From NCBI GenBank assembly GCA_964016885.1, contig OZ024744.1, positions 117,490,001 through 117,554,000 on the forward strand: a DNA stretch of 64,000 nt, in the 5' to 3' direction. This DNA comes from Eledone cirrhosa. Lineage: Eukaryota. Positions 3,912-34,006 of this stretch are shown one piece after another. How positions within the stretch are numbered: the stretch's first letter is position 1; each line of letters begins with the position of its first letter. The translations under genes were made by a program, and so were the position numbers. Under the pieces are notes generated by a model that worked only from the letters and a program-made list of their open reading frames with translations, was not told the origin of the DNA and made no database searches.

Positions 3912-4231
3912 GAATGCCATGGTTGACGGAGGCTCGGCTCTGTAAGGTATAGTAATTTTTAACCGTTAAAACAATTGTAAATTGTTTAAAACTTGAACCA
4001 AATTGTTGATAAAGACACCCTCCTCCTCGTGAGAGGGGTCTTTCTGTCCGTTATTTGGCCCTTCGGGGTTAAATAACCAGTTATTGGGGTTTTGTACCCA
4101 AAATTTCATTTTAAACAAAAAAACATGGCTACGAAAAAGAAATTTCATACGTCACTCCCACTCATTCCGTCTTCTTCTTCCTCAATCATCACTACAGCAG
4201 AGAGAAGATTGTCTCTCTCCCTTCTTTAAAT

Positions 4232-6214
4232 GTGTCTCTCTCCCTCCCTTCTCTTTCGCAAGTGACGAAAGAAAAGAAAAGTCTCGTGCAAAGCGTGCAA
4301 GGTTTCTCCACGACGACGACAGCGACGAAACAGGTGTGCGGGAAATACGAAAACCCAGTTCATTCGTCTGACGTCAGGAATAATAGCAGTAGCAGCCGTA
4401 ATAACAACAGCAACAGTGACAATGAAAACAACAGTAGCAGCCGCAACAGCATCACCAGCAGCATAAACAACAACAGCATTAGCAGCAGCAACACCAACAA
4501 CAACCACAGCAACAGCGGCGGAGGCAGTAGTCGTAGTACCTGCAGCAACAACAAAAGTACCAGCAGCTCTGACGACAACAACAACAGCAGAGAAAAACCA
4601 ATCTCATTTGCAGGTATTGCGAAAAACCTGGAAACAATCCTCATAACAAATGAGGAATTAGAGGAAGCGAAGAAGATGGTGACAAAGAACGGACACCGAG
4701 CAATCTGCAAGGCAGCGGAAAAATTTTTCGAAACCCAAGAGCACTGTACGGTCACGTACCGTACAGTAAGTACAAAATCCCGTAGGGTGGAAAGAGCCAC
4801 AGAGGCCCAAATACAAAAAGCCTTGGGGTCTGTGTGGCAGCGGAAAACGCACATCACCCGAGGCAAAAAATATGCCACCGTAGACGTACTTTTTGCCACA
4901 CCCCAGGAGGCAAAGGCCCAATCAGTAGTGACCCTAAGGAGCGAGGAAATGGTGTTGGTGCCCTCCTACTGCGGGCAAAAAATTGTGAGGGTCAAACTGA
5001 CACACGTCCCCCCCGGAATGACCCCTTCTTGGCTGGCCGCGTCTGTCCTCGTCGGAATCGAGGACAAAACAACTGTACTGCAAGTACAGAAAAAAGTAAG
5101 AGAAGATTGGGTCGGCTCCTCCATTGAGATGCTAATCCAAACCAACCAGGAGTGCATCGAAGCTATCCCGGATGTGATAGACTTCGATAACGGCACTCAA
5201 CTGCCCATAAGTGTTGAGGGCAAACGCCCGAAATGCTTTCGCTGTGGATCGAAGACTCACCTCAGGGCCTTCTGCAACGAGAAGACCCTGAGAAAGGAGA
5301 AAACCCCCCTCCTTCCGAATCCGGCTCCACGGCTACCAGCAACAGGACAAGCGGCAACCAGGAACGATAGGTCCGTGGCACCCATACCCACTCCACGGAA
5401 ATCAAAAACAGCAGCAGCAGTGGAAATATTAACAACAACAACAGCAATACCAAATGCAGCTGCAACAGAGACTCCAGTGCAAACATCACCAACAACAACA
5501 AGTGAAAGAGTGGAGCTGGTACCCCTCCCCGACCTCACAGAATCAGACATGGAGTGTGAGGTGGGAGAGGGATGGCAAAAGGTCGCAAGAAGGCACAAAC
5601 GCAGAAGCAGCGCATCGTCGCCTTTGAAAAGGGAGGAAAGAAATGAGAAAAGGGTAAAGTCTACTGCAAAGAGACCCACAGCAGCAACACCACCAACACC
5701 ATCACCACCCACACCAGCACCACCATCAGCACCGGCGACAACCCCACCGCCAACAACACCTTCAACACCACCACCACAAGCACCAACATCGCAAACACAA
5801 CAACAAAACACACACACCCAGCAACAACGACAAGAAAATAGTAGAACCACACCCCACCCCCAGAAAAACAAATGCACGGCAATAAATACACACAACAAGA
5901 AACTAATGACTTACATAATTGAACACACAGACATTTCACAACAGGACTACATAATACCAGCACCAATCAAAACGCCAACTAACATAAGACTGCTAAAAAT
6001 AGCACAGAAACAATACACAAATATTAAAACGAAATTCCCCAACGCAGTTGGTGATTTCAGGGACCTAGGAGGAACCATCAATCGAAGAGTATACTCAGAC
6101 ATTCTCTTAGAAGAGCCGACGACCAGCCGAAGGGACGATTCAACGGTCCCTTCACCAGACGATCAAGTGAAAAGGGATGTAAAAACCATCCCTCCTCTAC
6201 CAAAAGTACGGTAA
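4232..6214 (+). CDS. Tx1 ORF1p (gag-like nucleic-acid-binding protein, CCHC zinc knuckle)
   Basis: CFRCGSKTHLRAFC = CX2CX4HX4C. Asn/Ser-rich N-terminus and Pro/Thr-rich C-terminus. The frame is open from 4115, but the likely start ATG (4125) is in another frame, so the start is uncertain or frameshifted. Confidence 0.85.
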   Translation: MSLSLPSLSQVTKEKKSLVQSVQGFSTTTTATKQVCGKYENPVHSSDVRNNSSSSRNNNSNSDNENNSSSRNSITSSINNNSISSSNTNNNHSNSGGGSSRSTCSNNKSTSSSDDNNNSREKPISFAGIAKNLETILITNEELEEAKKMVTKNGHRAICKAAEKFFETQEHCTVTYRTVSTKSRRVERATEAQIQKALGSVWQRKTHITRGKKYATVDVLFATPQEAKAQSVVTLRSEEMVLVPSYCGQKIVRVKLTHVPPGMTPSWLAASVLVGIEDKTTVLQVQKKVREDWVGSSIEMLIQTNQECIEAIPDVIDFDNGTQLPISVEGKRPKCFRCGSKTHLRAFCNEKTLRKEKTPLLPNPAPRLPATGQAATRNDRSVAPIPTPRKSKTAAAVEILTTTTAIPNAAATETPVQTSPTTTSERVELVPLPDLTESDMECEVGEGWQKVARRHKRRSSASSPLKREERNEKRVKSTAKRPTAATPPTPSPPTPAPPSAPATTPPPTTPSTPPPQAPTSQTQQQNTHTQQQRQENSRTTPHPQKNKCTAINTHNKKLMTYIIEHTDISQQDYIIPAPIKTPTNIRLLKIAQKQYTNIKTKFPNAVGDFRDLGGTINRRVYSDILLEEPTTSRRDDSTVPSPDDQVKRDVKTIPPLPKVR

Positions 6215-6249
6215 GTGGTCTTTCCCATCTTTTCCACTCTATTTTAAAT

Positions 6250-9200
6250 ATGACCTCACTCAGAATAGGCAGCATAAATGCGCGTGGCTTGGGGTCGTCA
6301 TGGAAGCAGGGTCACCTGCTCAACGACCTCAGGTCACTAAACATAGATGTAGTGGCCATCAGCGAGACCAGAATCTCCGAAGCACGGGCCTTCGCACCGA
6401 TCTTCGGCGGCTACGATGTGTACGCATCTCCCAGCCGTCCTGGATCCGGTGGAGGAGTTGCTGTACTTTTTCGGAGAGGTTTGGATCTCGCCATACGGGC
6501 CATCTTCCTGGACCCAGAGGGTAAGCTGGTGGTGCTGGACGTGACCAGCGGAGACGGGCAAGCTTTCAGGCTAGTGGCCGTCTATGCCCCGACAGGAGCA
6601 GGGCGGCCTGATTTCTTCCGGCGTCTGGAGACCTTTCTTGGAACGTCGCGCTCTTTAGTGTTAGTGGGCGACTGGAACGGGATCTTAGATGCACGCTGGG
6701 ACTGTGTGGGATTAGCGGATAGGGGTGGAGGGTGCAAGAGCCTCACCAACCTGCTCAGGCGTTTTGAACTGTCTGACAGGTACCGATTGGATTTCCCGAA
6801 TGTGCCAATGTGGACTTGGACAAACCGCATAGGGTCATCCAGATCATATCTAGATAGAGTATTTTGTAGGGAAATAGATAGGTCTAGCATAGGCTGTCCA
6901 CAATTCAAGATAGTCAGCTACACGGACCACAAATTCGTGATCTGTGTGCTTGACTTAGATAGGCTTCATAGACGAGGACCCGGCTACTGGAAGCTAAACG
7001 CGTCCTTACCAGCGCGCAAGGCCTACAGAGACCGGATTAGCGAACTAGTTAAGCGGGCGTTGACGGGGGCCATCGTCAACAACAAGTGGTGGTTTGCTCT
7101 GAAAAGAGCGATTAGAATAGAATCGATTAGATTTAGTAAGGCTTTAGCAATAGAGAAAAATAGAGCAGAGGGAGAACTAGTTAGAAAATTAGACGAGGCG
7201 CTTAGCAAAGGCATTGCGACCGACGTGCTTGCGGCGAAATTGGCCCTTGACCAATTCTTCAATGCAAAGCACGAAGGCTGCGTTGTCAGAGCAAGGGTGC
7301 GTGCTCTCAGACACGAGGGGACGAAAGCCGTTCAATGGGCCCGAGTGGCGGAGGCGCGTCGTGGCAACAAAGCCACGATCCGGTCTTTGGTGGACCACGA
7401 CGGGCGCATGCTACTCGATCCCGGGCAAATGTGTGAAGCTTTTCAGCGACACTTCGCTCAGCTGTTCGGGGGCAGCGGCGGGCCGGGTAGAGGGATGGAC
7501 TTTAGTGTCTACCTCGATGGACTGCCGCGGCTCTCGGCCACTGAGGCGAAGTGTTGCGAAAAGCCGATAACAGCCGCTGAAGTAAGGGAGGCAATGACTG
7601 GCTGCACAAGGGGTAAATCGCCTGGTTTGGATGGTCTGCCCTATGAACTTTACGTACAGATGCCAGACTTGTTCGGAGGCCTCTTGGCGGACGTCTACTG
7701 CAACTGGCAACAGAACGGGAGAATTCCCAGTTCTGTGAGCCGAGGAGCGGTGGCACTGCTGAGAAAGGATCCGAACAAGGGGGATAACATAGAAAATTTC
7801 CGGCCCATAACTCTGCTAAACACAGAGTTTAAGATTTTGGCCAAGGTGCTAGCAAAGAGGCTGGCGCTTGTCGTTGGTGGTCTGGTGGGAGAGGCGCAGA
7901 CATGCGCCATTCCCGACAGATCCATCCACGACAACCTCCACCTCATGCGATACATCGTAGAGAGGGTAGCTAGGGAACCTGGCACGGGTGGGTCCTTGAT
8001 CAATTTAGATCAGTCGAAAGCTTTCGATAGGGTCGACCATCGTTACCTAGCGGCAGTCCTGAGGGCGGCTGGCTTTGGGCCCGTCTTCAGAGGCTGGATC
8101 GCTGCCATGCACAGCGACATCTGCTCTGTGGTGAGAGTGAACGGTCACCTGTCGGAACCGTTCAACATCATGCGCTCGGTCCGCCAAGGATGTCCCCTCT
8201 CGTCCCTCTTGTACGTATTGACTCTCGAGCCATTACTGCACAAACTGGAGACGTTGAGGGGGGTCCCGCGCGAACTAGGATGCGGAAGATCCGTATCAGC
8301 ATATGCGGACGATGTCACCGTAGTGGTGTCGAACGCCAAACACATCGAGGCGATCGGCACTACACTAAGAGAATACGAAGCGGTGACAGGAGCAATGATC
8401 AACCAGGAAAAGTCAGTGGGCCTGCAGCTCGGCACATGGAGAGGCAGGTCCATGCCGTCCAACAGCGTCGTCGGACGCTGGACGGACGGACCGGTTAAAT
8501 TGCTAGGGGTCTGGTTCGGTCCGGACCTCCAGACGGACAAAAACTGGGACGAGGTGACGAGCAGGGTGGCTTCTCTCACCCAGAAATGGGCCGAGAGGAA
8601 GCTATCCCTGAAAGGTCGAGCGGAGGTGGCTAACGCGTACATCGCGTCCGTCATCTGCTACCGCCTGACCGTCGTACCTTGTCCTAAGCCTCGCCTGACT
8701 GTGCTGGAGCGTTTGCTCTTTCGCTTTTTGTGGAAGGGACGCGCTCCGATGGTCAGGCGGTCCATCTGTTGTCAACACCCGCTACGTGGAGGGCTGGGCA
8801 TGCCGTGGCTGATGATGCGCAGGCACGCGCTCAGGCTACGACATCTCCACCTCTTCCTCGACGGTGATCAGGTGTGGTCGCCGTTTGCTAGACGCGTGTT
8901 TCCCCAGCTCGTTTCCTTGACGGAGCTGCAGTCCTGGGTCAAGCGAAGACCGAGAGGGAGCGCCTGGAGACTGGAATGTCTTCAGGCGCTCACAGCCCTC
9001 GACCAATCGGGCAATGTGATCGGTGGAAACTCCACCTCGGCGTTCTATAGAGGATTAGTGGAGGGGAAGAGCGACGACGTACTTGGGGAAACTCTAGGCG
9101 TCGACGAAAATCAACTAGCCAATCTCTTCGGAAGAACTTTCGGGCCAGGGCCTATGGACAACTTCCAGAAATCTCTGGCCTGGCAGTGCTACCGAGGAGC

Positions 9201-9669
9201 CTTGCCAGTTCGGGATAAACTCTACAGGCATGGAGGTGCCGTCAGCCGGGCATGTCCGAGATGCGCGCAGGGCGACGAAACCGTCCTGCACGCACTCGTC
9301 CAGTGTCCGAAAATTGCTGACTTGTGGGTTTATGTCGAACACCTGCTGTCGCGTTTAGGACGGATCCGGCTATCATCTGAGTCCATCGTGATGATTACCC
9401 CGCCCTCCTCCTTTAGCCGGGAAGGGCAGGCAGTTTTTATCTGCCTGGTGGCCATGGCGAAAGAGATAGTATGGTGGACACGTTTGAAAGGGCTGAAGAC
9501 GAGCACTTACCTCTTCGGTGATGCTCTGATTGACTTTTTCAAATTTCATTTGAAAAGGAAAATCAGAGTAGAGAGGGAAGTGCTCTCTTCCCAGCATTTT
9601 GTTGAAAGATGGGTGAGAGAAGCAAGAATGGCCCGAGTGAATGGGCCTACTCTGAGCATATATCTGTAA
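6250..9669 (+). CDS. Tx1 ORF2p: APE endonuclease + reverse transcriptase + C-terminal CCHC zinc finger
   Basis: 1139 aa without interruption. APE motifs SINARGL, ISET, VYAP, GDWN, YLDR, TDH. RT motifs KSPGLDG, FRPITLL, KAFDRV, RQGCPLS, YADD. C-terminal CPRC...H...C. Confidence 0.97.
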   Translation: MTSLRIGSINARGLGSSWKQGHLLNDLRSLNIDVVAISETRISEARAFAPIFGGYDVYASPSRPGSGGGVAVLFRRGLDLAIRAIFLDPEGKLVVLDVTSGDGQAFRLVAVYAPTGAGRPDFFRRLETFLGTSRSLVLVGDWNGILDARWDCVGLADRGGGCKSLTNLLRRFELSDRYRLDFPNVPMWTWTNRIGSSRSYLDRVFCREIDRSSIGCPQFKIVSYTDHKFVICVLDLDRLHRRGPGYWKLNASLPARKAYRDRISELVKRALTGAIVNNKWWFALKRAIRIESIRFSKALAIEKNRAEGELVRKLDEALSKGIATDVLAAKLALDQFFNAKHEGCVVRARVRALRHEGTKAVQWARVAEARRGNKATIRSLVDHDGRMLLDPGQMCEAFQRHFAQLFGGSGGPGRGMDFSVYLDGLPRLSATEAKCCEKPITAAEVREAMTGCTRGKSPGLDGLPYELYVQMPDLFGGLLADVYCNWQQNGRIPSSVSRGAVALLRKDPNKGDNIENFRPITLLNTEFKILAKVLAKRLALVVGGLVGEAQTCAIPDRSIHDNLHLMRYIVERVAREPGTGGSLINLDQSKAFDRVDHRYLAAVLRAAGFGPVFRGWIAAMHSDICSVVRVNGHLSEPFNIMRSVRQGCPLSSLLYVLTLEPLLHKLETLRGVPRELGCGRSVSAYADDVTVVVSNAKHIEAIGTTLREYEAVTGAMINQEKSVGLQLGTWRGRSMPSNSVVGRWTDGPVKLLGVWFGPDLQTDKNWDEVTSRVASLTQKWAERKLSLKGRAEVANAYIASVICYRLTVVPCPKPRLTVLERLLFRFLWKGRAPMVRRSICCQHPLRGGLGMPWLMMRRHALRLRHLHLFLDGDQVWSPFARRVFPQLVSLTELQSWVKRRPRGSAWRLECLQALTALDQSGNVIGGNSTSAFYRGLVEGKSDDVLGETLGVDENQLANLFGRTFGPGPMDNFQKSLAWQCYRGALPVRDKLYRHGGAVSRACPRCAQGDETVLHALVQCPKIADLWVYVEHLLSRLGRIRLSSESIVMITPPSSFSREGQAVFICLVAMAKEIVWWTRLKGLKTSTYLFGDALIDFFKFHLKRKIRVEREVLSSQHFVERWVREARMARVNGPTLSIYL

Positions 9670-9917
9670 ATTAAAGGTGGAAAACTGGGAGAGGGCACTT
9701 GCCTTGGTGGTCAGGGTCATTGTGGCTTTTTACTGGGCTTTCTCCACAAATGTCCCTCCGAAGTCTCCCCCCTATTGGGGAATTTTTCATTGTTATTTTT
9801 TGTTACATCCTCTGTTTTTGTTTTTTACACGCAGAAATGCCCATTTGTACCGTCCTGCATTGTCCTGCACTGTCCTTAATGTCTACTTTATGTAAACCCT
9901 TGTGGTTAATAAAGAAA

Positions 9918-9968
<51 letters not shown>

Positions 9969-10113: not shown

Positions 10114-13100
10114 CGGGTGGAGAGAGCCACGGAGGCTCAAATCCCAAAGGCCTTGGGGTGCGTCTGGGCACGCAAAACCCACATCACCCGAGACAAAAAT
10201 TACTCCACAGTAGACATACTTTTCGCCACCCCCAAAGAAGCGAAGTCTCACTCTTTGGAAACACTAAAGAGTGAGGAGATAGTCTTGGTGCCCTCCTACT
10301 GCCGGCAGAAATTTGTGAGGGTCAAAGTGACCCAGGTCCCACCCGACGTGCCCATACCTTGGCTGGCCGCGTCTATCCTTGCTGGAATCGAGGACAGGAC
10401 GACCATGCTGCAAGTAGAGAAAATAGGGAGAGAGAACTGGTCAGGTATAGGCATGCAAATGCTTATACAAACTGACCAGGAATGTATCGACGCTATCCCC
10501 GATATCATAGACATCGAGGAAGGACTCCAACTCCTTATAAGTGTAGAAGAAAGACGGCCAAAATATTATCTCTGTGGGTCAAAGGGTCATCTCAGGGCCT
10601 TTTGCCCGCAGAAGACAGCGAAGAAGAAGGCCTCTCTCCTTCCAATACCTGGTCCGCTGCTACCAAGAGCAGGGCAGGCAACAAATGCAGAAGCCCCTTC
10701 CACGGTGAGTAGGAGGGCAACGTCTGTGGCACCCATACCAAGGCCACGGACAACTAAAGCAGCAGCATCAGTGGCGGCAACAGCTACATTTGCAGTAGCT
10801 GCACCAGCAACAAAATTGCCGGAGAGGGCTCCACTACCACCACCAACAGCGGTGGAGCACATACCCCTCCCAGACGCCACGGAATCCGACATGGAGTTTG
10901 AGGCGGGAGTGAAGTGGCAAACGCTCTGCCACAAAAAAAAAAAAAAAAAAAAAAAACCCCTTAGCTTCGCCCCACAAAAGCGAAGGCACACAAAGATGGG
11001 TAAAGGCAGCAAGGAAACTTGCAGCAACACCACCACCATCACCATCACCACCACAAGCACCACCGCCAACAACAACCACACCACCACTAGCATCACCAAA
11101 AACACCAACAACGCAAACACAACAAAATACACACACCAAACAGCAAGAAGAAGAAAACAGCAACAAAATCACCCCTCCCCCAAAAAAGTACACAGCCATA
11201 AACATGGCAAAAAAAAGAACTCAAACAATATATAAAGCAGCACACAGACATTACAGAAAAAAACTACTACACCCCACCAACACCAAGAACTCTCCCGACA
11301 AACATAAGCATCATTGAAATCTTAATAGAAGAGTACAAACCTTTAAAACAAAAATTCCCCAACGCAGTTGGAGACTTCAGACGGTCGGTTACCAAGAGGA
11401 TATACACTGACATCCTCTTGGAACCACCCATGACCAGCCAAAGGGACGGTTCTACTGTCCCTTCACCACACGATCAAGGTAAGTGACCCTTTCTCACTTG
11501 CCCCGTTTCTCATCCAACATGGCCGTACTCAGAATAGGCTGTATAAATGCACGTGGCCTGGGGTCATCTTGGAAGCAGGGTCACCTGCTCAACGACCTTA
11601 GGTCACTAAACATAGATGTGGTGGTCATCGGTGAGACCAGAATCTCCGAAGCACGAGCCATCGCACCGATCTTCGGCAGCTACGATGTATACGCATCTCC
11701 CAGCCGTCCAGGATCGGGAGAGGGGTTGCCGTCCTTTTTCGGAGAGGGTTGGATCTAGCCATACGGGCCATCTTCCTAGACCCAGAAGGTAAGTCGGTGG
11801 TGCTGGACGTGACCGGCAGCGAAGGCAATGCTTTCAGGCTAGTAGCTGTCTACGCTCCAACAGGGCAGCACGGCCAGATTTCTTCAGACGTCTAGAGACC
11901 TTTCTTGGAACGTCCCGTCTTTAGTGTTAGTGGGCGACTGGAACGGTATCTTGGATGCACGCTGGGATTGTGTGGTGCTAGTGGATAGGGGAGGAGGGTG
12001 CAAGAGCCTCACCAACCTGCTCAGACGTTTTGAACTGTCTGACAGGTATCGACTGGATCACCCGAATGTGCCAATGTGGACATAGACAAACCGCATCGGG
12101 TCATCCAGATCGTATCTCGATAGGGTATTCTGCAGAGAACTAGATAAGGCTAGTATAAGTTGTCCATTTAATATAGTCGACTACACAGACCACAAATGTG
12201 TGATCTGTGAGATCGACATAGACAGACTTCATAGACAAGGGCCCGGTTACTGGAAGCTGAACGCGTCTTTCCCGGCGCACAAAGCCTACAGAGACCGTAT
12301 TAGCGTATCAGTTAAGCGGGCGTTGACGGGAGCGGTCGTCAACAACAGGTGGTGGTTCGCCCTGAAAAGGGCAATTAAAGTAGAGTCGATTAGGTTGAGC
12401 AAAGGAGTAGTGATAGAGGAAAATAGAGTAGAGGGAGAGCTAGTAAGAAAGCTAGAAGAGGTGTTTAGGACAGGCATCGCAACCGGCGTGCTTGCGGAGA
12501 GATTGGCACTCGACCAATTCTTCAACGCAAAACACAAAGGCTGCGTTGTCAGAGCTAGAGCGCGTGCTCTGAAACACGAGGGGACAAAAGCCGTCCAATG
12601 GGCCCGAGTGGCACGACGTGGAAACAAAGCCACAATTCGGTCTTTGTCTGACCAAAACGGGTGCGGGATGCTCGAACCCGAGCGGATGTGTGAAGCTTTT
12701 CAGCAGCACTTTGCTGAACTGTTCGGGAGCAGCGGCGGCCCGGATCGGGGCATGGACTTCAGTACATACCTCGACGGACTACCTCGGATCTTGACGACCG
12801 CAGCACAGTGTTGCGAAAATCCAATAACAGCCGGTGAAATACGAGAAGCGATGGCTAACTGCACAAGGGGTAAATCGCCAGGTTTGGATGGTCTGCCCTA
12901 CGAGCTTTATGCATTTATGCCAGACTTGTTCGGTGACCTCTTGGCAGACGTCTACTGCAACTGGCAGCAGAACGGGAGCATTCCCAGTTTTGTGAGCCGG
13001 GGAGCGGTGACGCTGCTGAAAAAAGACCTGAACAAGGGGGATGTTATCGATATTTTCAGGCCCATAACTCTACTGAACGCAAAGTTCAAGATTTTGGCCA

Positions 13101-15537: not shown

Positions 15538-18500
15538 CACGACCACAACAACAACAACTCAGAGCAATAACGACAATAACACCAATAACAACAGCAAGAA
15601 TGACAACACCAACAATAAGAGCATCAGAAACACCACATTTGCTGCAGCAGCAGCAAAAACAAAGCGCTTATTGAATATTGATATTGATATTAGCGATAAA
15701 GACGAACAGTTGGCCCAGGCATGGAGGCTAATTAAACGGGAGAAGTACTGGGCAAACCTGACCATCCCGGACGAGGCAATAGCAGCCATGCAAAGAAGGA
15801 CGGTGTTCTTTCGATGCATTTCGATGCAGACACGAAAAGTGGAACTTGCCAACCAAGCAGGGGTCGAGGCTGCTTTGGAGTACATCGGAAGTAACATAGA
15901 GTACAAAGCAAGAGGCAAACAGTTCGGTACTATCTCGGTACTGTTCAAAACCGAGGCCCTCGCTATTAAGCACCCGGTGACCCCCTGCAGAACGCATTAT
16001 CATGCATCCGTCTTACATGGGTAAAAGGACAGTAAAGTCCGCATTCCCAGCATCCCACTAGGAATGAACATATCGTGGCTGCTGGGATGCGTAATCGAGG
16101 AGGGGACAGACACTACCCTCCTGGATATCAAAAGGACAGAGAGAGAAGACTGGTCCGGAATGGATTTGGAGATTCTTCTCCAAATGAAGCCGGAGGACAT
16201 GAACAACATCCCGGATTTTGCCCGTCTGCAGGACGGGACAACAAACCAACTAATCATTGACGGAAGAAGGCCACGCTGCTTCGCCTGCGGGGAAGCAACG
16301 CATCTGCAAGCCTTCTGCCCTCAGCGCAAAAATGCAGGGGGTCGCAAACCTTCTTTGTTCCCAACGCCAGTGTCAGCACGGAAAGCTGCACCACCACCAC
16401 CAGCAAAAACAACACCAACAAAGACACGGACACCAATATTAAAAACAGCCAACACCAAAACCAATCCAAGGGGAAAAAGATGAAAGCTCCCCCCCTCCCC
16501 ATTATACACATAGACAAAACAATAAACGCACACACAGACACAGAGACACTCACAGCCATAGACCCTTTGTCTTCCAGCAGCGAAGATGAAAGAAAACCCA
16601 AAAGTGCAATAAAACAGAGAAAACTCACAAAAAAAAAAAAAGCCCCAACAAAACTCAAAAACATACACAACAAAAAATACAGACACACTAACGCAAACAC
16701 TTCCCCAATAACATCAGCACCAACATCAACATCGACACCACCTCCACAATCCCCGAAACGCAAACAACCTAAACAAACACAAGTACAAATAAACACACAA
16801 ATACCTGAAATTGCAGACACCACACCTACAAAAAACACAGACATACCTGAAACAACACAGACATACACAGGCATACCTGAAACAACACAGACATACACAG
16901 ACATACCCGAAACAACACAGACATACACAGACATACCCGAAACAACACAGACATACCCGAAACAACACAGACATACCCGAAACAACACAGACATACACAG
17001 ACATACCCGAAACAACACAGACATACACAGACATACCTGAAACAACACAGACATACACAGACATACCCGAAACAACACAGACATACACAGACATACCCGA
17101 AACAACACAGACATACACAGACATACCCGAAACAACACAGACATACACAGACATACCCGAAACAACACAGACATACACAGACATACCCGAAACAACACAG
17201 ACATACACAGACATACCCGAAACAACACAGACATACACAGCCATACCCGAAACAACACACAACACAGACATACACAGACATACCCGAAACAACACAGACA
17301 TACACAGCCATACCGGAAACAACACACAACACAGACATACACAGACATACCCGAAACAACACAGACATACACAGACATACCCGAAACAACACAGACATAC
17401 CCGAAACAACACAGACATACACAGACATACCTGAAACAACACAGACATACACAGACATACCCGAAACAACACAGACATACACAGACATACCCGAAACAAC
17501 ACAGACATATACAGACATACCCGAAACAACACAGACATACACAGATATACCCGAAACAACACAGACATACACAGACATACCCGAAACAACACAGACATAC
17601 ACAGAATTACCCGAAACAACACAGACATACACAGACATACCCGAAACAACACATACATACACAGACATACCCGAAACAACACAGACATACACAGACATAC
17701 CTGAAACAACACAGACATACACAGACATACCTGAAACAACACAGACATACACAGACATACCCGAAACAACACATACATACACAGACATACCCGAAACAAC
17801 ACAGACATACACAGACATACCTGAAACAACACAGACATACACAGACATACCTGAAACAACACAGACATACACAGACATACCCCAAACAACACAGACATAC
17901 ACAGGCATACCCGAAACAACACAGACATACACAGACATACCTGAAACAACACAGACATACACAGACATACCCGAAACAACACAGACATACACAGACATAC
18001 CCGAAACAACACAGACATACACAGACATACCCGAAACAACACAGACATACACAGACATACCCGAAACAACACAGACATACACAGACATACCCGAAACAAC
18101 ACAGACATACACAGACATACCCGAAACAACACAGACATACACAGACATACCCGAAACAACACAGACATACACAGACATACCCGAAACAACACAGACATAC
18201 ACAGACATACCCGAAACAACACAGACATACACAGACATACCCGAAACAACACAGACATACACAGCCATACCCGAAACAACACACAACACAGACATACACA
18301 GACATACCCGAAACAACACAGACATACACAGACATACCCGAAACAACACAGACATACACAGACATACCCGAAACAACACAGACATACACAGACATACCCG
18401 AAACAACACAGACATACACAGACATACCCGAAACAACACAGACATACACAGCCATACCCGAAACAACACACAACACAGACATACACAGACATACCCGAAA

Positions 18501-21500
18501 CAACACAGACATACACAGACATACCCGAAACAACACAGACATACACAGACATACCCGAAACAACACAGACATACACAGAATTACCCGAAACAACACAGAC
18601 ATACACAGACATACCCGAAACAACACAGACATACACAGACATACCTGAAACAACACAGACATACACAGACATACCCGAAACAACACAGACATACACAGAC
18701 ATACCCGAAACAACACAGACATACACAGGCATACCCAAAACAACACAGACATACACAGATATACCCGAAACAACACAGACATACACAGACATACCCGAAA
18801 CAACACAGACATACACAGACATACCCGAAACAACACAGACATACACAGACATACCCGAAACAACACAGACATACACAGACATACCCGAAACAACACAGAC
18901 ATACACAGACATATCTGAAACAACACAGACATACACAGACATACCTGAAACAACACAGACATACACAGACATACCCGAAACAACACAGACATACACAGGC
19001 ATACCCGAAACAACACAGACATACACAGACATACCCGAAACAACACAGACATACACAGACATACCTGAAACAACACAGACATACACAGACATACCCGAAA
19101 CAACACAGACATACACAGACATACCCGAAACAACACAGACATACACAGACATACCCGAAACAACACAGACATACACAGCCATACCCGAAACAACACACAA
19201 CACAGACATACACAGACATACCCGAAACAACACAGACATACACAGACATACCCGAAACAACACAGACATACACAGACATACCCGAAACAACACAGACATA
19301 CACAGGCATACCCGAAACAACACAGACATACACAGACATACCCGAAACAACACAGACATACACAGACATACCTGAAACAACACAGACATACACAGACATA
19401 CCCGAAACAACACAGACATACACAGACATACCCGAAACAACACAGACATACACAGACATACCCGAAACAACACAGACATACACAGCCATACCCGAAACAA
19501 CACACAACACAGACATACACAGACATACCCGAAACAACACAGACATACACAGACATACCCGAAACAACACAGACATACACAGACATACCTGAAACAACAC
19601 AGACATACACAGACATACCCGAAACAACACAGACATACACAGACATACCCGAAACAACACAGACATACACAGACATACCCGAAACAACACAGACATACAC
19701 AGACATACCCGAAACAACACAGACATACACAGAATTACCCGAAACAACACAGACATACACAGACATACCCGAAACAACACAGACATACACAGACATACCT
19801 GAAACAACACAGACATACACAGACATACCCGAAACAACACAGACATACACAGACATACCCGAAACAACACAGACATACACAGGCATACCCAAAACAACAC
19901 AGACATACACAGACATACCCGAAACAACACAGACATACACAGACATACCCGAAACAACACAGACATACACAGACATACCCGAAACAACACAGACATACAC
20001 AGACATACCCGAAACAACACAGACATACACAGAATTACCCGAAACAACACAGACATACACAGACATACCCGAAACAACACATACATACACAGACATACCC
20101 GAAACAACACAGACATACACAGACATACCTGAAACAACACAGACATACACAGACATACCTGAAACAACACAGACATACACAGACATACCCGAAACAACAC
20201 AGACATACACAGGCATACCCGAAACAACACAGACATACACAGACATACCTGAAACAACACAGACATACACAGACATACCCGAAACAACACAGACATACAC
20301 AGACATACCCGAAACAACACAGACATACACAGACATACCCGAAACAACACAGACATACACAGACATACCCGAAACAACACAGACATACACAGACATACCC
20401 GAAACAACACAGACATACACAGACATACCCGAAACAACACAGACATACACAGACATACCCGAAACAACACAGACATACACAGCCATACCCGAAACAACAC
20501 AGAACACAGACATACACAGACATACCCGAAACAACACAGACATACACAGACATACCCGAAACAACACAGACATACACAGACATACCTGAAACAACACAGA
20601 CATACACAGACATACCCGAAACAACACAGACATACACAGACATACCCGAAACAACACAGACATACACAGACATACCCGAAACAACACAGACATACACAGA
20701 CATACCCGAAACAACAGAGACATACACAGACATACCCGAAACAACACAGACATACACAGACATACACAGACATACCCGAAACAACACAGACATACACAGG
20801 CATACCCAAAACAACACAGACATACACAGATATACCCGAAACAACACAGACATACACAGACATACCCGAAACAACACAGACATACACAGACATACCCGAA
20901 ACAACACAGACATACACAGACATACCCGAAACAACACAGACATACACAGACATACCCGAAACAACAGAGACATACACAGACATACCCGAAACAACACAGA
21001 CATACACAGAATTACCCGAAACAACACAGACATACACAGACATACCCGAAACAACACAGACATACACAGACATACCTGAAACAACACAGACATACACAGA
21101 CATACCCGAAACAACACAGACATACACAGACATACCCGAAACAACACAGACATACACAGGCATACCCAAAACAACACAGACATACACAGATATACCCGAA
21201 ACAACACAGACATACACAGACATACCCGAAACAACACAGACATACACAGACATACCCGAAACAACACAGACATACACAGACATACCCGAAACAACACAGA
21301 CATACACAGACATACCCGAAACAACACAGACATACACAGACATATCTGAAACAACACAGACATACACAGACATACCTGAAACAACACAGACATACACAGA
21401 CATACCCGAAACAACACAGACATACACAGGCATACCCGAAACAACACAGACATACACAGACATACCCGAAACAACACAGACATACACAGACATACCTGAA

Positions 21501-24500
21501 ACAACACAGACATACACAGACATACCCGAAACAACACAGACATACCCGAAACAACACAGACATACACAGACATACCTGAAACAACACAGACATACACAGA
21601 CATACCCGAAACAACACAGACATACACAGACATACCCGAAACAACACAGACATACACAGACATACCCGAAACAACACAGACATACACAGACATACCCGAA
21701 ACAACACAGACATACACAGACATACCCAAAACAACACAGACATACACAGGCATACCCGAAACAACACAGACATACACAGACATACCCGAAACAACACAGA
21801 CATACACAGACATACCAGAAACAACACAGACATACACAGACATACCCGAAACAACACAGACATACACAGGCATACCCGAAACAACACAGACATACACAGA
21901 CATACCCGAAACAACACAGACATACACAGACATACCCGAAACAACACAGAAATACACAGACATACCCGAAACAACACAGACATACACAGGCATACCCGAA
22001 ACAACACAGACATACACAGACATACCCGAAACAACACAGACATACACAGCCATACCGGAAACAACACACAACACAGACATACACAGACATACCCGAAACA
22101 ACACAGACATACACAGACATACCCGAAACAACACAGACATACACAGACATACCTGAAACAACACAGACATACACAGACATACCCGAAACAACACAGACAT
22201 ACACAGACATACCCGAAACAACACAGACATACACAGACATACCCGAAACAACACAGACATACACAGACATACCCGAAACAACACAGACATACACAGACAT
22301 ACCCGAAACAACACAGACATACACAGACATACCCGAAACAACACAGACATACACAGACATACCTGAAACAACACAGACATACACAGACATACCTGAAACA
22401 ACACAGACATACACAGACATACCCGAAACAACACAGACATACACAGGCATACCCGAAACAACACAGACATACACAGACATACCCGAAACAACACAGACAT
22501 ACACAGGCATACCCGAAACAACACAGACATACACAGACATACCCGAAACAACACAGACATACCAGAAACAACACAGACATACACAGACATACCCGAAACA
22601 ACACAGACATACACAGGCATACCCGAAACAACACAGACATACACAGACATACCCGAAACAACACAGACATACACAGACATACCCGAAACAACACAGAAAT
22701 ACACAGACATACCCGAAACAACACAGACATACACAGGCATACCCGAAACAACACAGACATTCACAGACATACCCGAAACAACACAGACATACACAGCCAT
22801 ACCCGAAACAACACACAACACAGACATACACAGACATACCCGAAACAACACAGACATACACAGACATACCCGAAACAACACAGACATACACAGACATACC
22901 CGAAACAACACAGACATACACAGACATACCCGAAACAACACAGACATACACAGAATTACCCGAAACAACACAGACATACACAGACATACCCGAAACAACA
23001 CAGACATACACAGACATACCTGAAACAATACAGACATACACAGACATACCCGAAACAACACAGACATACACAGACATACCCGAAACAACACAGACATACA
23101 CAGGCATACCCAAAACAACACAGACATACACAGACATACCCGAAACAACACAGACATACACAGACATACCCGAAACAACACAGACATACACAGACATACC
23201 CGAAACAACACAGACATACACAGACATACCCGAAACAACACAGACATACACAGACATACCCGAAACAAAACAGACATACACAGACATACCTGAAACAACA
23301 CAGACATACACAGACATACCTGAAACAACACAGACATACACAGACATACCCGAAACAACACAGACATACTCAGGCATACCCGAAACAACACAGACATACA
23401 CAGACATACCCGAAACAACACAGACATACACAGACATACCTGAAACAACACAGACATACACAGACATACCTGAAACAACACAGACATACCCGAAACAACA
23501 CAGACATACACAGACATACCTGAAACAACACAGACATACACAGACATACCCGAAACAACACAGACATACACAGACATACCCGAAACAACACAGACATACA
23601 CAGACATACCCGAAACAACACAGACATACACAGACATACCCAAAACAACACAGACATACACAGACATACCAGAAACAACACAGACATACACAGACATACC
23701 CGAAACAACACAGACATACACAGGCATACCCGAAACAACACAGACATACACAGACATACCCGAAACAACACAGACATACACAGACATACCCGAAACAACA
23801 CAGAAATACACAGACATACCCGAAACAACACAGACATACACAGGCATACCCGAAACAACACAGACATACACAGGCATACTCGAAACAACACAGACATACA
23901 CAGACATACCCGAAACAACACCACCAAAACCATCACCACCACAGTCACCAAAACGAAAACAAATAAAACCACACCAACAAAATGTTAAAAACTTCGTGCT
24001 TGTCAGAAGGGCCAACGATAAACTGATGGCCCTCTTAGCACGAAGCGAGGACATTCAAACAGAGGGGGAGATTTTTGAAATGAGCACATTTTGCGTGCCA
24101 GAAGATTTGCTTCTGGTCCGAATGTCACCCAATTCCTTCAAAGAAATTCGAGAGAGCTTTCCTCAAGACGTGGGAACCCCGAATGTGAAACCCACATCGA
24201 GACTTTTAAAGGGGTTCCCAAAAGAAACCCCACCAACCAAGGAGGTCGAACCACCCGACCTTCACAAGACCCCGGGAGGTAAGTAAACTTTCCCTCTCTC
24301 TCTTAGCTTACCAACATGGCCATATTAAGAGTAGGAAGTTTAAATGTTCGCGGCCTGGGGGTCACCCTGGAAGCAGGGTCGCCTGCTCAACGACCTCAGG
24401 TCGCTGGAAATGGATGTGATTGCCGTCAGCGAGACCTGAATTTCCGACACGCGCGTAGTAGCCCCCATTTTCGACGACTATCAGATCTTCGGATCTGTTA

Positions 24501-27273: not shown

Positions 27274-30200
27274 GGCGACCTACGTAGTAAATCGTATTAT
27301 CGTGAGCTCCGCAAAGGTTTGATATTTTCAGTTGTTTAAAATTGCCATTTATGGAATATTTTTATTGTTAACTGTATATAAGTGCACACACATTGTTTTC
27401 TGAAAAGGAAACTCAAAAAGATTGGGGCCTTGAGCCCAAAATTTAAACTTTTATAATTATCAAAAAAAAAAAAAAATTTCTTTGAAAAATCATGGCCGAC
27501 TCACAGCTGAACCCAGTAGCTGAGAGCCTTCCTCACAAACTAACACCTCACACTGACACCACCATTGTAAATATTACTACGTTTGCCAACACTAAAAATA
27601 TAAGCTCTAGCAATATTTTAAATTTGTCTCAGGCAGACATTCATTTCCCGCCATTACCAATGACTGCAGATGTTGAAGTTGCCACCCCACCACTACCACA
27701 GCGACAACAGAAACAAAAGAAAAAAAAATTATCTCGTGATATCGAAACGAATTCAGCCAAAATGAGCTGTACCACACCGAACACCACTGACGCCACCACC
27801 ACCACAACTGAAACTAAAATTAATAATAACAAAAATAACGATAACAACAACAGCAACAATGAGAATAAGAAAACCCTGTCTTTTGCCAGAGTAGCAAAAA
27901 AGTGCGAAGCATTCCAGGTAACTCAGGAGGAATTAGAAGAAGCCAAAAAAATGGTAAAGAAGATGGGTACAGGGTCAGCCCCCCCCCCCCCCCCACACCC
28001 CACCTAATAAAATGGAGCATCGGCGCCTATGCACCGTGTCTTATCGGACGATTAACATAAAATCGCGCCGAGTGGAACGGGCATCCGAGTCCCAAATCCA
28101 AAAAGCTTTGGGACATGTGTGGGCAAAAAAACCCACATCAGATGTGTGCAGAAATATGGAACCGTGGACGTGTTCTTTGAAACACCACAGGAGGCCAGAG
28201 AACACTCCATGGCCCCACTAAGAAGTGACGACTTCACACTCGTCCCAAGCTATTGTGGCCAGAGACTCGTGAAGATCAGGGTCACCCACGTTCCACCGGC
28301 CATCGAAATTCTCTGGCTAAAGGCTGCCGTCCTCGCCGGCATCGAAGCCAACCCCAAAATAATCGAAATAGCGAAAGAAAAGCAGAACTGGTCCGGATCT
28401 GGGATGGAGCTCCTGATCCAAGCGGACCAAAAAAGCATTGAGGAGATCCCAGAGGTAATAGACCTCACTGACGGCAGCCTCCTCACCGTAATCGTCGAGG
28501 GCAGAGTCTAGGTGTGTCGCTTGTGGTGAAGGAACCCACCTAATGGCTTTCTGCCCTCAGGCTAAAAGGTTGAGGCCACCTCTCTTACCCACCCCAGTGA
28601 CTCAACCATCAACACCACCAGCAGCAGAAATGGCAGCAACAACAGAAGCAACTGTAACAGCAACAACCCCAGCAACAGTAGAAAAACCAACACCACCACC
28701 ACCCAACGCGCCAGAACTAGCACCAGCGCCTACACCATCCACCACGCCACAACCAAAATCAACGCGTGTGGAGGATTTTCCACTCCCCAACCTATCGCAA
28801 CTGGAGACAGGTTGTGACGACGAGGAGTGGGAAACGGTATCAGAAAAAAAGAAAAGAAGAAAAAGAAACCAAAAAAGAAAAAATCCCCTTCCTCCCCCCT
28901 CCAAAAACAAAATACAGAGGGAAACAAATAAACTATCAAACAAAAAAGTTAGGACAGCTATGCCACCATCCACACCAGCATCACCAACCCCATCACCACA
29001 AACACCAATACCATCACCATCATTAACCCCAACACCACCATCACCAACACCACAAAAGTCACCAAAAAGCGAAACAGAAACACCCACAACAAACGCAAAC
29101 AAAACAAAACAACCAAAACGATACACACTACACAGCAATAAATTTGAACAACAACCAATTATTACACTACATCCAACACAACACCAGCATCACAGAAAAA
29201 GACTACACAACAACCCAAAAGTTCACACCACCTCCACACATACAAATCACTCGCAGCACACAGAAAACGTACATGACAGTAAAACAAAAATTCCCCAAAG
29301 ACATCGGAGACTTCCGACAAGCACTCTCCAGGAGGATTTATAAGGACATCCTTCCGGAGGAGGCCACAAGCAGTGAAAAGGATGGAGAAACCATCCTTCC
29401 TCTACGAAAAGTAAGGTAAGTGGTCTTTCCCATCTTTTCCACTCCATTTCAACATGATCTCACTCAGAATAGGCAGCATAAATGCGCGCGGCTTGGGGTC
29501 GTCATGGAAGCAGGGCCACCTGCTCAACGACCTCAGGTCACTAAACATAGATGTAGTGGCCATCAGCGAGACCAGGATCTCCGAAGCACGGGCCTTCGCA
29601 CCGATCTTCGGCGGCTACGATGTGTACGCATCTCCCAGCCGTCCTGGATCGGGGGGAGGAGTTGCTGTGCTTTTTCGGAGAGATTTGGATCTCGCCATAC
29701 GGACCATCTTCCTGGACCCAGAGGGTAAGTTGGTGGTGCTGGACGTGACCAGAGGAGACGGGCAAGCTTTCAGGCTAGTGGCCGTCTATGCCCCGACAGT
29801 AGCAGAGCGGCCTGATTTCTTCCGGTGTCTGGAGACCTTTCTTGGAACGTCCCGCTCTTTAGTATTAGTGGGCGACAGGAACGGGATCTTAGATGCACGC
29901 TGGGACTGTGTGGGATTAGCGGATGGGGGAGGAGGGTGCAAGAGCCTCACCAACCTGCTCAGGTGTTTTGAACTGTCTGACAGGTACCGATTGGATTTCC
30001 CGAATGTGCCAATGTGGTCTTGGACAAATCGCATAGGGTCATCCAGATCATATCTAGATAGAGTATTTTGTAGGGAAATAGATAGGTCTAGCATAGGCTG
30101 TCCACAATTCAAGATAGTCAGCTACACGGACCACAAATTCGTGATCTGTGTGCTTGACTTAGATAGGCTTCATAGACGAGGACCCGGCTACTGGAAGCTA

Positions 30201-33631: not shown

Positions 33632-33856
33632 ATGTTACATTATCTCTTGTTAGTTGCTTTAACAGTTATTAATGTGGCCAAATTTATCTTTAGCTTTTGT
33701 TGTTTTATCGCTAAAATAATTCTTATATTATTGCGAAGAGCTTTACTTCCTATAAAAATGAAATCTATAGAAGACGATGTTATACTAATTACGGGTGGCG
33801 GAAGAGGTTTAGGCCGGCAGATAGCTTTGGAATTTGCTAAACATAAACCTAAAATG
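33632..33856 (+). CDS. DHRS3: short-chain dehydrogenase/reductase, DHRS3 (retSDR1)-like, coding exon 1
   Basis: Hydrophobic N-terminal anchor followed by VILITGGGRGLGRQIALEFAK (TGxxxGxG Rossmann motif). 75 codons ending at a perfect donor ATG|GTAAGT, phase 0. Confidence 0.88.
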
Positions 33857-34006
33857 GTAAGTCTTTCTTCCTCACTATCTGTTCAGCCATTTCCTCACTT
33901 TAATTTATCTTTACAAACTATCAACAACTTACAATCTCTCCACTACACACCCCTCTTCCCCACATTATCTTTCGGTGTGGGTTTGTTTACCAAAATAAAA
34001 GCTTCC

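Follow-up and report, generated by a model that had tools for sequence, protein, structure and literature searches.

The window analysed here, a stretch of 64,000 nt, is part of a 3.0-Gb animal genome. Bases 1–32,900 are occupied by L1/Tx1-type LINEs (fragments and the elements A, B, C and D), all on one strand and with (ATT)n between them. Element A, an L1/Tx1-type LINE, extends from 3912 to ~9920. Its ORF2 domains PF03372, PF00078 and PF13966 all scored above the cut-off in Pfam, and the best match among solved structures in the PDB was human L1 ORF2p (E 1.5e-52). ORF1, which is separate from ORF2, carries a CCHC knuckle, CFRCGSKTHLRAFC, and gave no match in the Pfam search. A is without LTRs and its 3′ tail is a simple repeat, which fits a non-LTR retrotransposon of L1/Tx1 type. 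The Tx1 label for the A-group LINEs is one that we presume from their architecture; 52 protein homologues were retrieved, with no named Tx1 references among them. At 12 of 12 full-length copies of A and of the family P described below, the 5′ end lay directly 3′ of an (ATT)n run, as expected from the target-sequence preference of Tx1 elements. Arrays are thus likely to grow by insertion into earlier tails.

A had been described as intact in the first-pass annotation. In the window copy ORF2 is whole, but ORF1 is frameshifted and, from its ATG at 4125, runs for only 34 codons before a stop. The sister copies L166 and L167 have a whole ORF1 of 698 and 696 aa, respectively. The features are as follows (a slash marks the putative cut in donor-like motifs).

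3912–6167, + strand: P-derived 5′ half of A, 5′ UTR and ORF1 up to the P donor position, with the CCHC knuckle; ORF1 frameshifted near its start in the window copy
6121–6167, + strand: P-type ORF1 tail of A (TTSRRDDSTVPSPDDQ), ending at AAG, where P goes on with GTAAGT
6166–6167, + strand: junction AG, common to both parents (2-nt microhomology); exon end of P, putative acceptor AG of D
6168–6210, + strand: D-type ORF1 tail of A, 43 nt (42 nt in D), one extra G giving the frame of D
6208–6216, + strand: D-derived donor-like motif ACG/GTAAGT of A; ORF1 stop TAA at 6212–6214
6250–9669, + strand: D-derived ORF2 of A, 1,139 aa, APE endonuclease, RT and zf-RVT
9670–9966, + strand: D-type 3′ UTR of A, AATAAA at 9908–9913, (ATT)n tail
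11476–11484, + strand: donor-like motif AAG/GTAAGT of B, a relative of P and not the parent
24276–24284, + strand: donor-like motif GAG/GTAAGT at the end of C ORF1
29371–29421, + strand: CAG (29371–29373), 42-nt tail and donor-like AAG/GTAAGT of D, a member of the 3′ parent family

Anatomy of the junction

In A, GATCAAG at 6161–6167 is followed from 6168 by TGAAAAGG. The same GATCAAG in B (11472–11478) is followed by GTAAGT, and in D the sequence TGAAAAGG starts at 29374, directly after CAG at 29371–29373. These sequences, quoted with their positions in the first-pass annotation, were all in place. The near-identity of the A and D ORF2 noticed there was borne out at 95.8% over 6166 to 9213, with no match upstream, and so was the doubled C-terminal end of A ORF1, which reads STVPSPDDQ-VKRDVKTIPPLPKVR, both tails in series. 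The two tails are homologous to each other. As P goes on with AAG/GTAAGT where A breaks, and CAG precedes the corresponding part of D, the two parts meet in an exact GT-AG junction. It lies 41 nt out of register between the parents, which excludes a homologous switch.

Both parental families are present in the genome

The break had been placed at the donor of a B-like ORF1. A donor does lie exactly at the break, but the parent is not B. There were 944 matches to a pattern in which GTAAGT follows a B/A-like tail, and the letter of A was present in 20 of the first 100 listed. The 5′ parent found in this way, family P, is located elsewhere in the genome, and its tail ends CCAGACGATCAAG/GTAAGTGA, the A-type ending for which a search had been proposed. 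Up to 6167, A is 86–95% identical to full P copies per 200-nt bin and 62–71% to D; from 6168 on, the bins are 94–99% like D and 78–91% like P. B matches the ORF1 of A at only 70–80%, and was ruled out as 5′ parent since P is closer. Over the last 56 nt upstream of the break, A is identical to one P copy (L043).

Separate trees, as the first-pass annotation had suggested, were built from 34 real copies for the last 300 nt of ORF1 and for 1,200 nt of ORF2. A grouped with P in the ORF1 tree (support unstarred) and with D in the ORF2 tree (support 100/100). In AU tests, A+D was rejected for ORF1 (p-AU 2.5e-5) and A+P was rejected for ORF2 (p-AU 1.2e-40, the truncated P_L131 left out). Thus A is a hybrid LINE, as had been claimed, P-like to 6167 and D-like from 6168, in which the 5′ UTR and ORF1 of P are joined to the ORF1 tail, ORF2 and 3′ UTR of D. 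With incongruent 5′ and 3′ trees and both parents present, it belongs among the recombinant LINE subfamilies, a class already known.

A 331-nt probe across the junction retrieved 879 candidates, and 40 of the 40 scored were at ~100%. The upstream 16-mer with TGAA or GTAA directly after it (the junction 20-mer class) occurs 2,487 times in the genome, whereas its reversed control gave 0, and 99 of the first 100 matches listed were of the A form. These counts identify A as a large young family and not a one-off copy. It comprises ~2,400 copies and outnumbers its 5′ parent P many times over.

A single origin is indicated for the join, since at two sites derived states absent from 15 P copies are common to all 27 aligned A copies (one gapped there). 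Older A copies are more P-like in the upstream part and have the D tail letter for letter. Copies without the extra G (L115 and L187, and less so L100 and L192) retain more P states. This suggests that in the founder the D tail was out of frame, ORF1 ending DQVKRMEKPSFLYEK, and that the G was gained later; the extra G would then likely have put the D tail back in the frame of D, giving the doubled tail. A secondary loss of the G is also seen (L114, L119), and the order from G-less to G is only suggestive.

A conserved donor motif at the end of ORF1

AAG/GTAAGT occurs at only two sites in the 5,895 nt of P, and A breaks exactly at one of them. Over P, B, D, C and E, donor positions −2 to +6 are invariant at 7 of 8 columns (a site chosen after it had been seen), compared with 28 of 187 columns in the preceding ORF1 and 5 of 30 in the spacer. 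The old family E has AAG/GTAGGT in 6 of 12 copies. The ORF1 stop lies after the donor in P, B and C, inside it in D and A, and before it in E. Retention of the donor whatever the position of the stop means that the protein is not the explanation, and argues for a role at the RNA level.

No conserved acceptor partner was found for this donor. In A and D the next CAG within ORF2 is in frame, and a long tract rich in T in their 3′ UTR ends with GCAG ~70 nt before AATAAA; this acceptor-like AG is absent from B, P and the other sampled 3′ ends. The donor joint was seen in none of the 15 contigs listed of 32 (four runs of unrecorded kind), a result with no bearing either way. Among metagenome contigs, 157 pattern matches to relatives were obtained and none was confirmed.

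Further donor joins and other module swaps

The patterns used in searches for a second donor-joined retrocopy see ~40–75% of possible partners and require an unmutated anchor. Within that reach none was found for B (0/3 and 0/35 matches), P (0/78) or D/A (0/5 and 0/11 with AG). Independent chimeras breaking at G/GTAAGT, for which the first-pass annotation had proposed a test, did not appear in the B, P and D/A searches. None of 9 matches had another donor joined to the AG of D. One deletion (L094) starts at the donor and ends at ACG. A breakage hotspot on the D side was considered and set aside: two deletions in D (L188, L191) end near the D-side AG used in A, but both have ambiguous junctions.

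B shows how modules are exchanged elsewhere in the group. Counted from the donor, it is 98–100% identical to P from +341 and 89–92% over −47 to +40, but only 57–77% further upstream; over +41 to +340 it is 91–93% D-like as against 84–87% P-like, a D-like EN segment. The B/P swap of ORF1 is in register, near −47 (47 nt from the donor), with no donor there, at a position homologous to the CAG of D, that is, to the D-side break of A. The B/P switch position may be an RT switching point, or may reflect a need for ORF2 to keep the ~45 nt that precede the donor. Overall, modules are swapped often in this group, and the swaps are in register and distant from donors. The earlier proposal that splicing repeatedly shuffles ORF1 modules was not upheld, as the donor join arose once and the other swaps were of this in-register kind.

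Origin of the junction

The exact use of a donor has to be weighed against ordinary deletion and template switching. As a null set, 70 distinct internal deletions were collected from 194 sequences, of which 53 were resolved and 17 unresolved. Microhomology at the resolved deletions was 0–5 nt with a mode of 2 (18/53), and at least 2 nt in 64%. Since 2-nt microhomology is the commonest class, an AG common to both parents means nothing alone. Only 1 of the 53, a weak case of 48 nt, was compatible with GT..AG. Calculated from the microhomology lengths of these deletions, the chance of an exact donor-plus-AG join was 1.3%, 0.4% and 0.06% for viable intervals of 100, 300 and 2,100 nt, the interval lengths being assumed.

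A substrate for read-through is available. Head-to-tail arrays had been assumed in the first-pass annotation, and D ORF1 sequence is indeed present downstream, on the same strand and within ~7.5 kb, at 6 of the 20 P loci; the D junction site itself is downstream of P in 4 of 20, and at L133 D begins ~20 nt past the end of P. Such arrays may postdate the join. The acceptor side is poor. The AG of A has 3 pyrimidines in 14 and no T, in line with the lack of a pyrimidine tract remarked on before, a count that is joint lowest among the 24 AGs within 360 nt 5′ of the D donor; a better candidate, CTCTCCAG/G, lies 42 nt further upstream.

In weighing these results, a likelihood ratio of ~100 was taken for the donor coincidence and divided by 3–5 for the poor acceptor. 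With prior odds of splicing against template switch or deletion set by judgement at 1:10 to 1:30, the outcome is about even to 3:1. We give slightly better than an even chance to the view that the join was made once by cutting of P RNA at the splice donor at the end of ORF1. A transcript reading through from P into a downstream D, spliced in cis from the P donor to the AG of D, would be one possible route, though taken singly it is not a probable one. Somewhat less likely still, a P RNA end freed at the donor might have been captured by trans-splicing or by an RT jump from D RNA; capture of donor-cut RNA would also account for the poor acceptor. The hybrid RNA would retain the promoter, ORF1 and a whole ORF2 and would mobilise itself in cis, unlike other spliced products. 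Splices landing inside ORF2 would forfeit cis mobilisation, according to the available part of the account of spliced L1 copies (PMC5860796), and this loss could explain why the product joined upstream of a whole ORF2 is the sole survivor.

A join independent of splicing is nearly as likely, at somewhat under an even chance. Through the 2-nt AG, the RT would have switched templates from D RNA to P RNA, or DNA would have been deleted within an array of P followed by D, and the donor position would be coincidental. Deletions with 2–3 nt of microhomology are common in these copies (the 70 events above), the acceptor of A is the poorest on offer and the other swaps in the group are not at donors. 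The B/P swap at the position homologous to the D-side break of A suggests a switching or viability boundary there, the one donor-coincident deletion without AG (L094) is about what chance predicts on a rough estimate, and the available text of the SolRTE study (10.1101/2022.11.04.512097) gives template switching as what is usually proposed for recombinant LINEs. Such a join nevertheless requires a coincidence of ~0.4–1.3% (assumed intervals of 300–100 nt) and a landing out of register in spite of in-register homology 41 nt away. A switch at the common AG, offered in the first-pass annotation as an alternative, is close in probability to splicing, a step that we infer.

It is improbable that the donor belongs to an intron used as a regular expression strategy, for ORF1-ORF2 fusion or for removal of ORF2 (an ORF1-only mRNA), with A as a by-product of mis-splicing; this judgement concerns donor function and overlaps with that on the donor-directed join. 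Retention of the donor regardless of frame is compatible with such an intron, as are the in-frame CAG in ORF2 and the T-rich 3′ UTR tract ending GCAG of A and D. A fusion intron was rejected, since fusion would lose the frame in P and could not happen in E, where the stop precedes the donor, and no intron-less copy was found in the B and D/A donor-join searches. ORF2 as an intron with a 3′ UTR acceptor was likewise rejected, the acceptor site being confined to A and D and absent from B, P and the other sampled 3′ ends. Local tandem duplication of the tail within one lineage, which the homology of the two tails might suggest and which had been named as an outcome fatal to the chimera, is refuted by the near-perfect match of each tail and its flank to a different living family and by both AU rejections.

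For the donor itself, a tentative and rather doubtful proposal is that the 5′ splice site at the end of ORF1 is functional, cutting or splicing off ORF2 or recruiting U1, and that one splice into a downstream element of the other family founded the A family.

Comparison with known systems

Spliced integrated L1 copies (SpIREs) make up ~2% of full-length L1 and are described as dead ends in the available part of the source (PMC5860796). As there, A is a retrotransposed LINE with its junction at a LINE splice donor and acceptor, the conserved donor is rarely used and cis preference determines which products are mobile. SpIREs are spliced within one element, whereas A joins two families, and they are dead ends, whereas A is a large active family with ~2,400 descendants (PMC5860796). 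The junction of A has the GT donor and AG acceptor of a SpIRE but not its pyrimidine-tract acceptor.

Chimeras of exons and L1 made by cis- or trans-splicing, such as RAP1GDS1-L1PA2, resemble A in that the 5′ partner ends exactly at a donor and the 3′ partner is a near-complete LINE, sometimes without a clear acceptor, and they can restore activity. Their 5′ partner is a host exon and not the ORF1 of another LINE, and in the accessible part of the report they are few in copy number and form no new subfamily (PMC13174262). A works like a SpIRE or an exon/L1 splice chimera but is not a SpIRE.

Active variants of SolRTE in Nicotiana also arose by exchange of 5′ modules between co-active LINEs; the available text credits template switching or mRNA fusion, with no mention of splicing or of a donor-exact break (10.1101/2022.11.04.512097). 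RNA is joined before retrotransposition in U6/L1 chimeras through RtcB ligation (PMC6789731), and spliceosomal cleavage leaves a free RNA end at the 5′ splice site in fungal telomerase RNA (PMC4299874); neither system, in the parts of the sources available, exchanges ORF1 between LINEs. Kibi and Koshi (microsatellite-targeting Tx1) and the TAA-targeting Dong insert into simple repeats as A and P do. According to the portions available, their repeats differ from the (ATT)n of A and P, whose targeting builds arrays in their own tails (PMC4494074, PMC3812793). In the literature, partially covered, no report was found of a LINE-LINE family born by splicing, nor of an ORF1-end donor that is conserved.

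Significance

When LINEs exchange ORF1 or promoter, RT template switching is usually held responsible, though not on direct evidence, and LINE copies that have been spliced are regarded as dead ends. In the case of A, one genome still contains the two parents, early intermediates and the junction in exact form. A is a well-resolved chimera for which the mechanism leans to involvement of a splice site, in a single event and not as a general route of shuffling. If splicing made A, the arrays that arise from targeting of own tails would be a breeding ground for new families, and splicing would be a creative process able to yield a new autonomous subfamily, one among the most successful young LINEs of this genome. 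Whatever made A, the perfect donor that ends ORF1 in five diverged lineages, independent of frame, is a putative cis-element of bicistronic LINE expression.

Splice-site motifs in the LINEs

At the end of ORF1, all five lineages (P, the 5′ parent family of hybrid A; B; D, its 3′ parent family; C; and the old family E) carry a perfect or near-perfect 5′ splice-site motif, whatever the reading frame.

Window 6208-6216, 11476-11484, 24276-24284 and 29413-29421; also genomic copies L153-L164: ORF1-end donor motif
Window ~6517-6525; B, 11785-11793; P copy L137: donor-like site in the endonuclease region

No conserved acceptor matching the ORF1-end motif was found across the five lineages. Binding of U1, RNA cutting and translation coupling are candidate roles for this motif. 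P, B and numerous copies of D have AAG|GTAAGT at the second donor-like site, which is weakened in young A copies. At this site the element is left in two D copies (L071 and L083), both into the same foreign sequence.

The 3′ UTR of A and D contains a long T-rich tract with GCAG at its end, ~70 nt upstream of AATAAA (window 9780-9840), which by its sequence looks like a textbook acceptor. The site is not conserved in B and P.

Module exchange and repeat structure

B and P have near-identical ORF2s but different ORF1s (window 11430-11820 versus P loci L124-L141). The switch is in register, ~47 nt upstream of the donor, and the B endonuclease segment from +41 to +340 is closer to D. A 30-nt minisatellite has expanded within the ORF1 region of element C to ~235 copies with 93% matches (window 16835-23921). 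Young A copies occur in tandem arrays with a spacing of ~6.05-6.9 kb.

G000:C1:179625003-179637447 and C1:55427439-55453376: the two loci with young A elements in tandem

Window beyond the LINE array

Numerous decayed LINE fragments of another type, with RT and mostly flanked by microsatellites, occupy 34900-62600. An exon-like stretch at ~33780-33860 (+), the strand of the LINE array, resembles a short-chain dehydrogenase start (PF00106, E 4e-4, below cut-off) and ends in a GTAAGT donor. The array may lie inside or upstream of a putative short-chain dehydrogenase-like gene.
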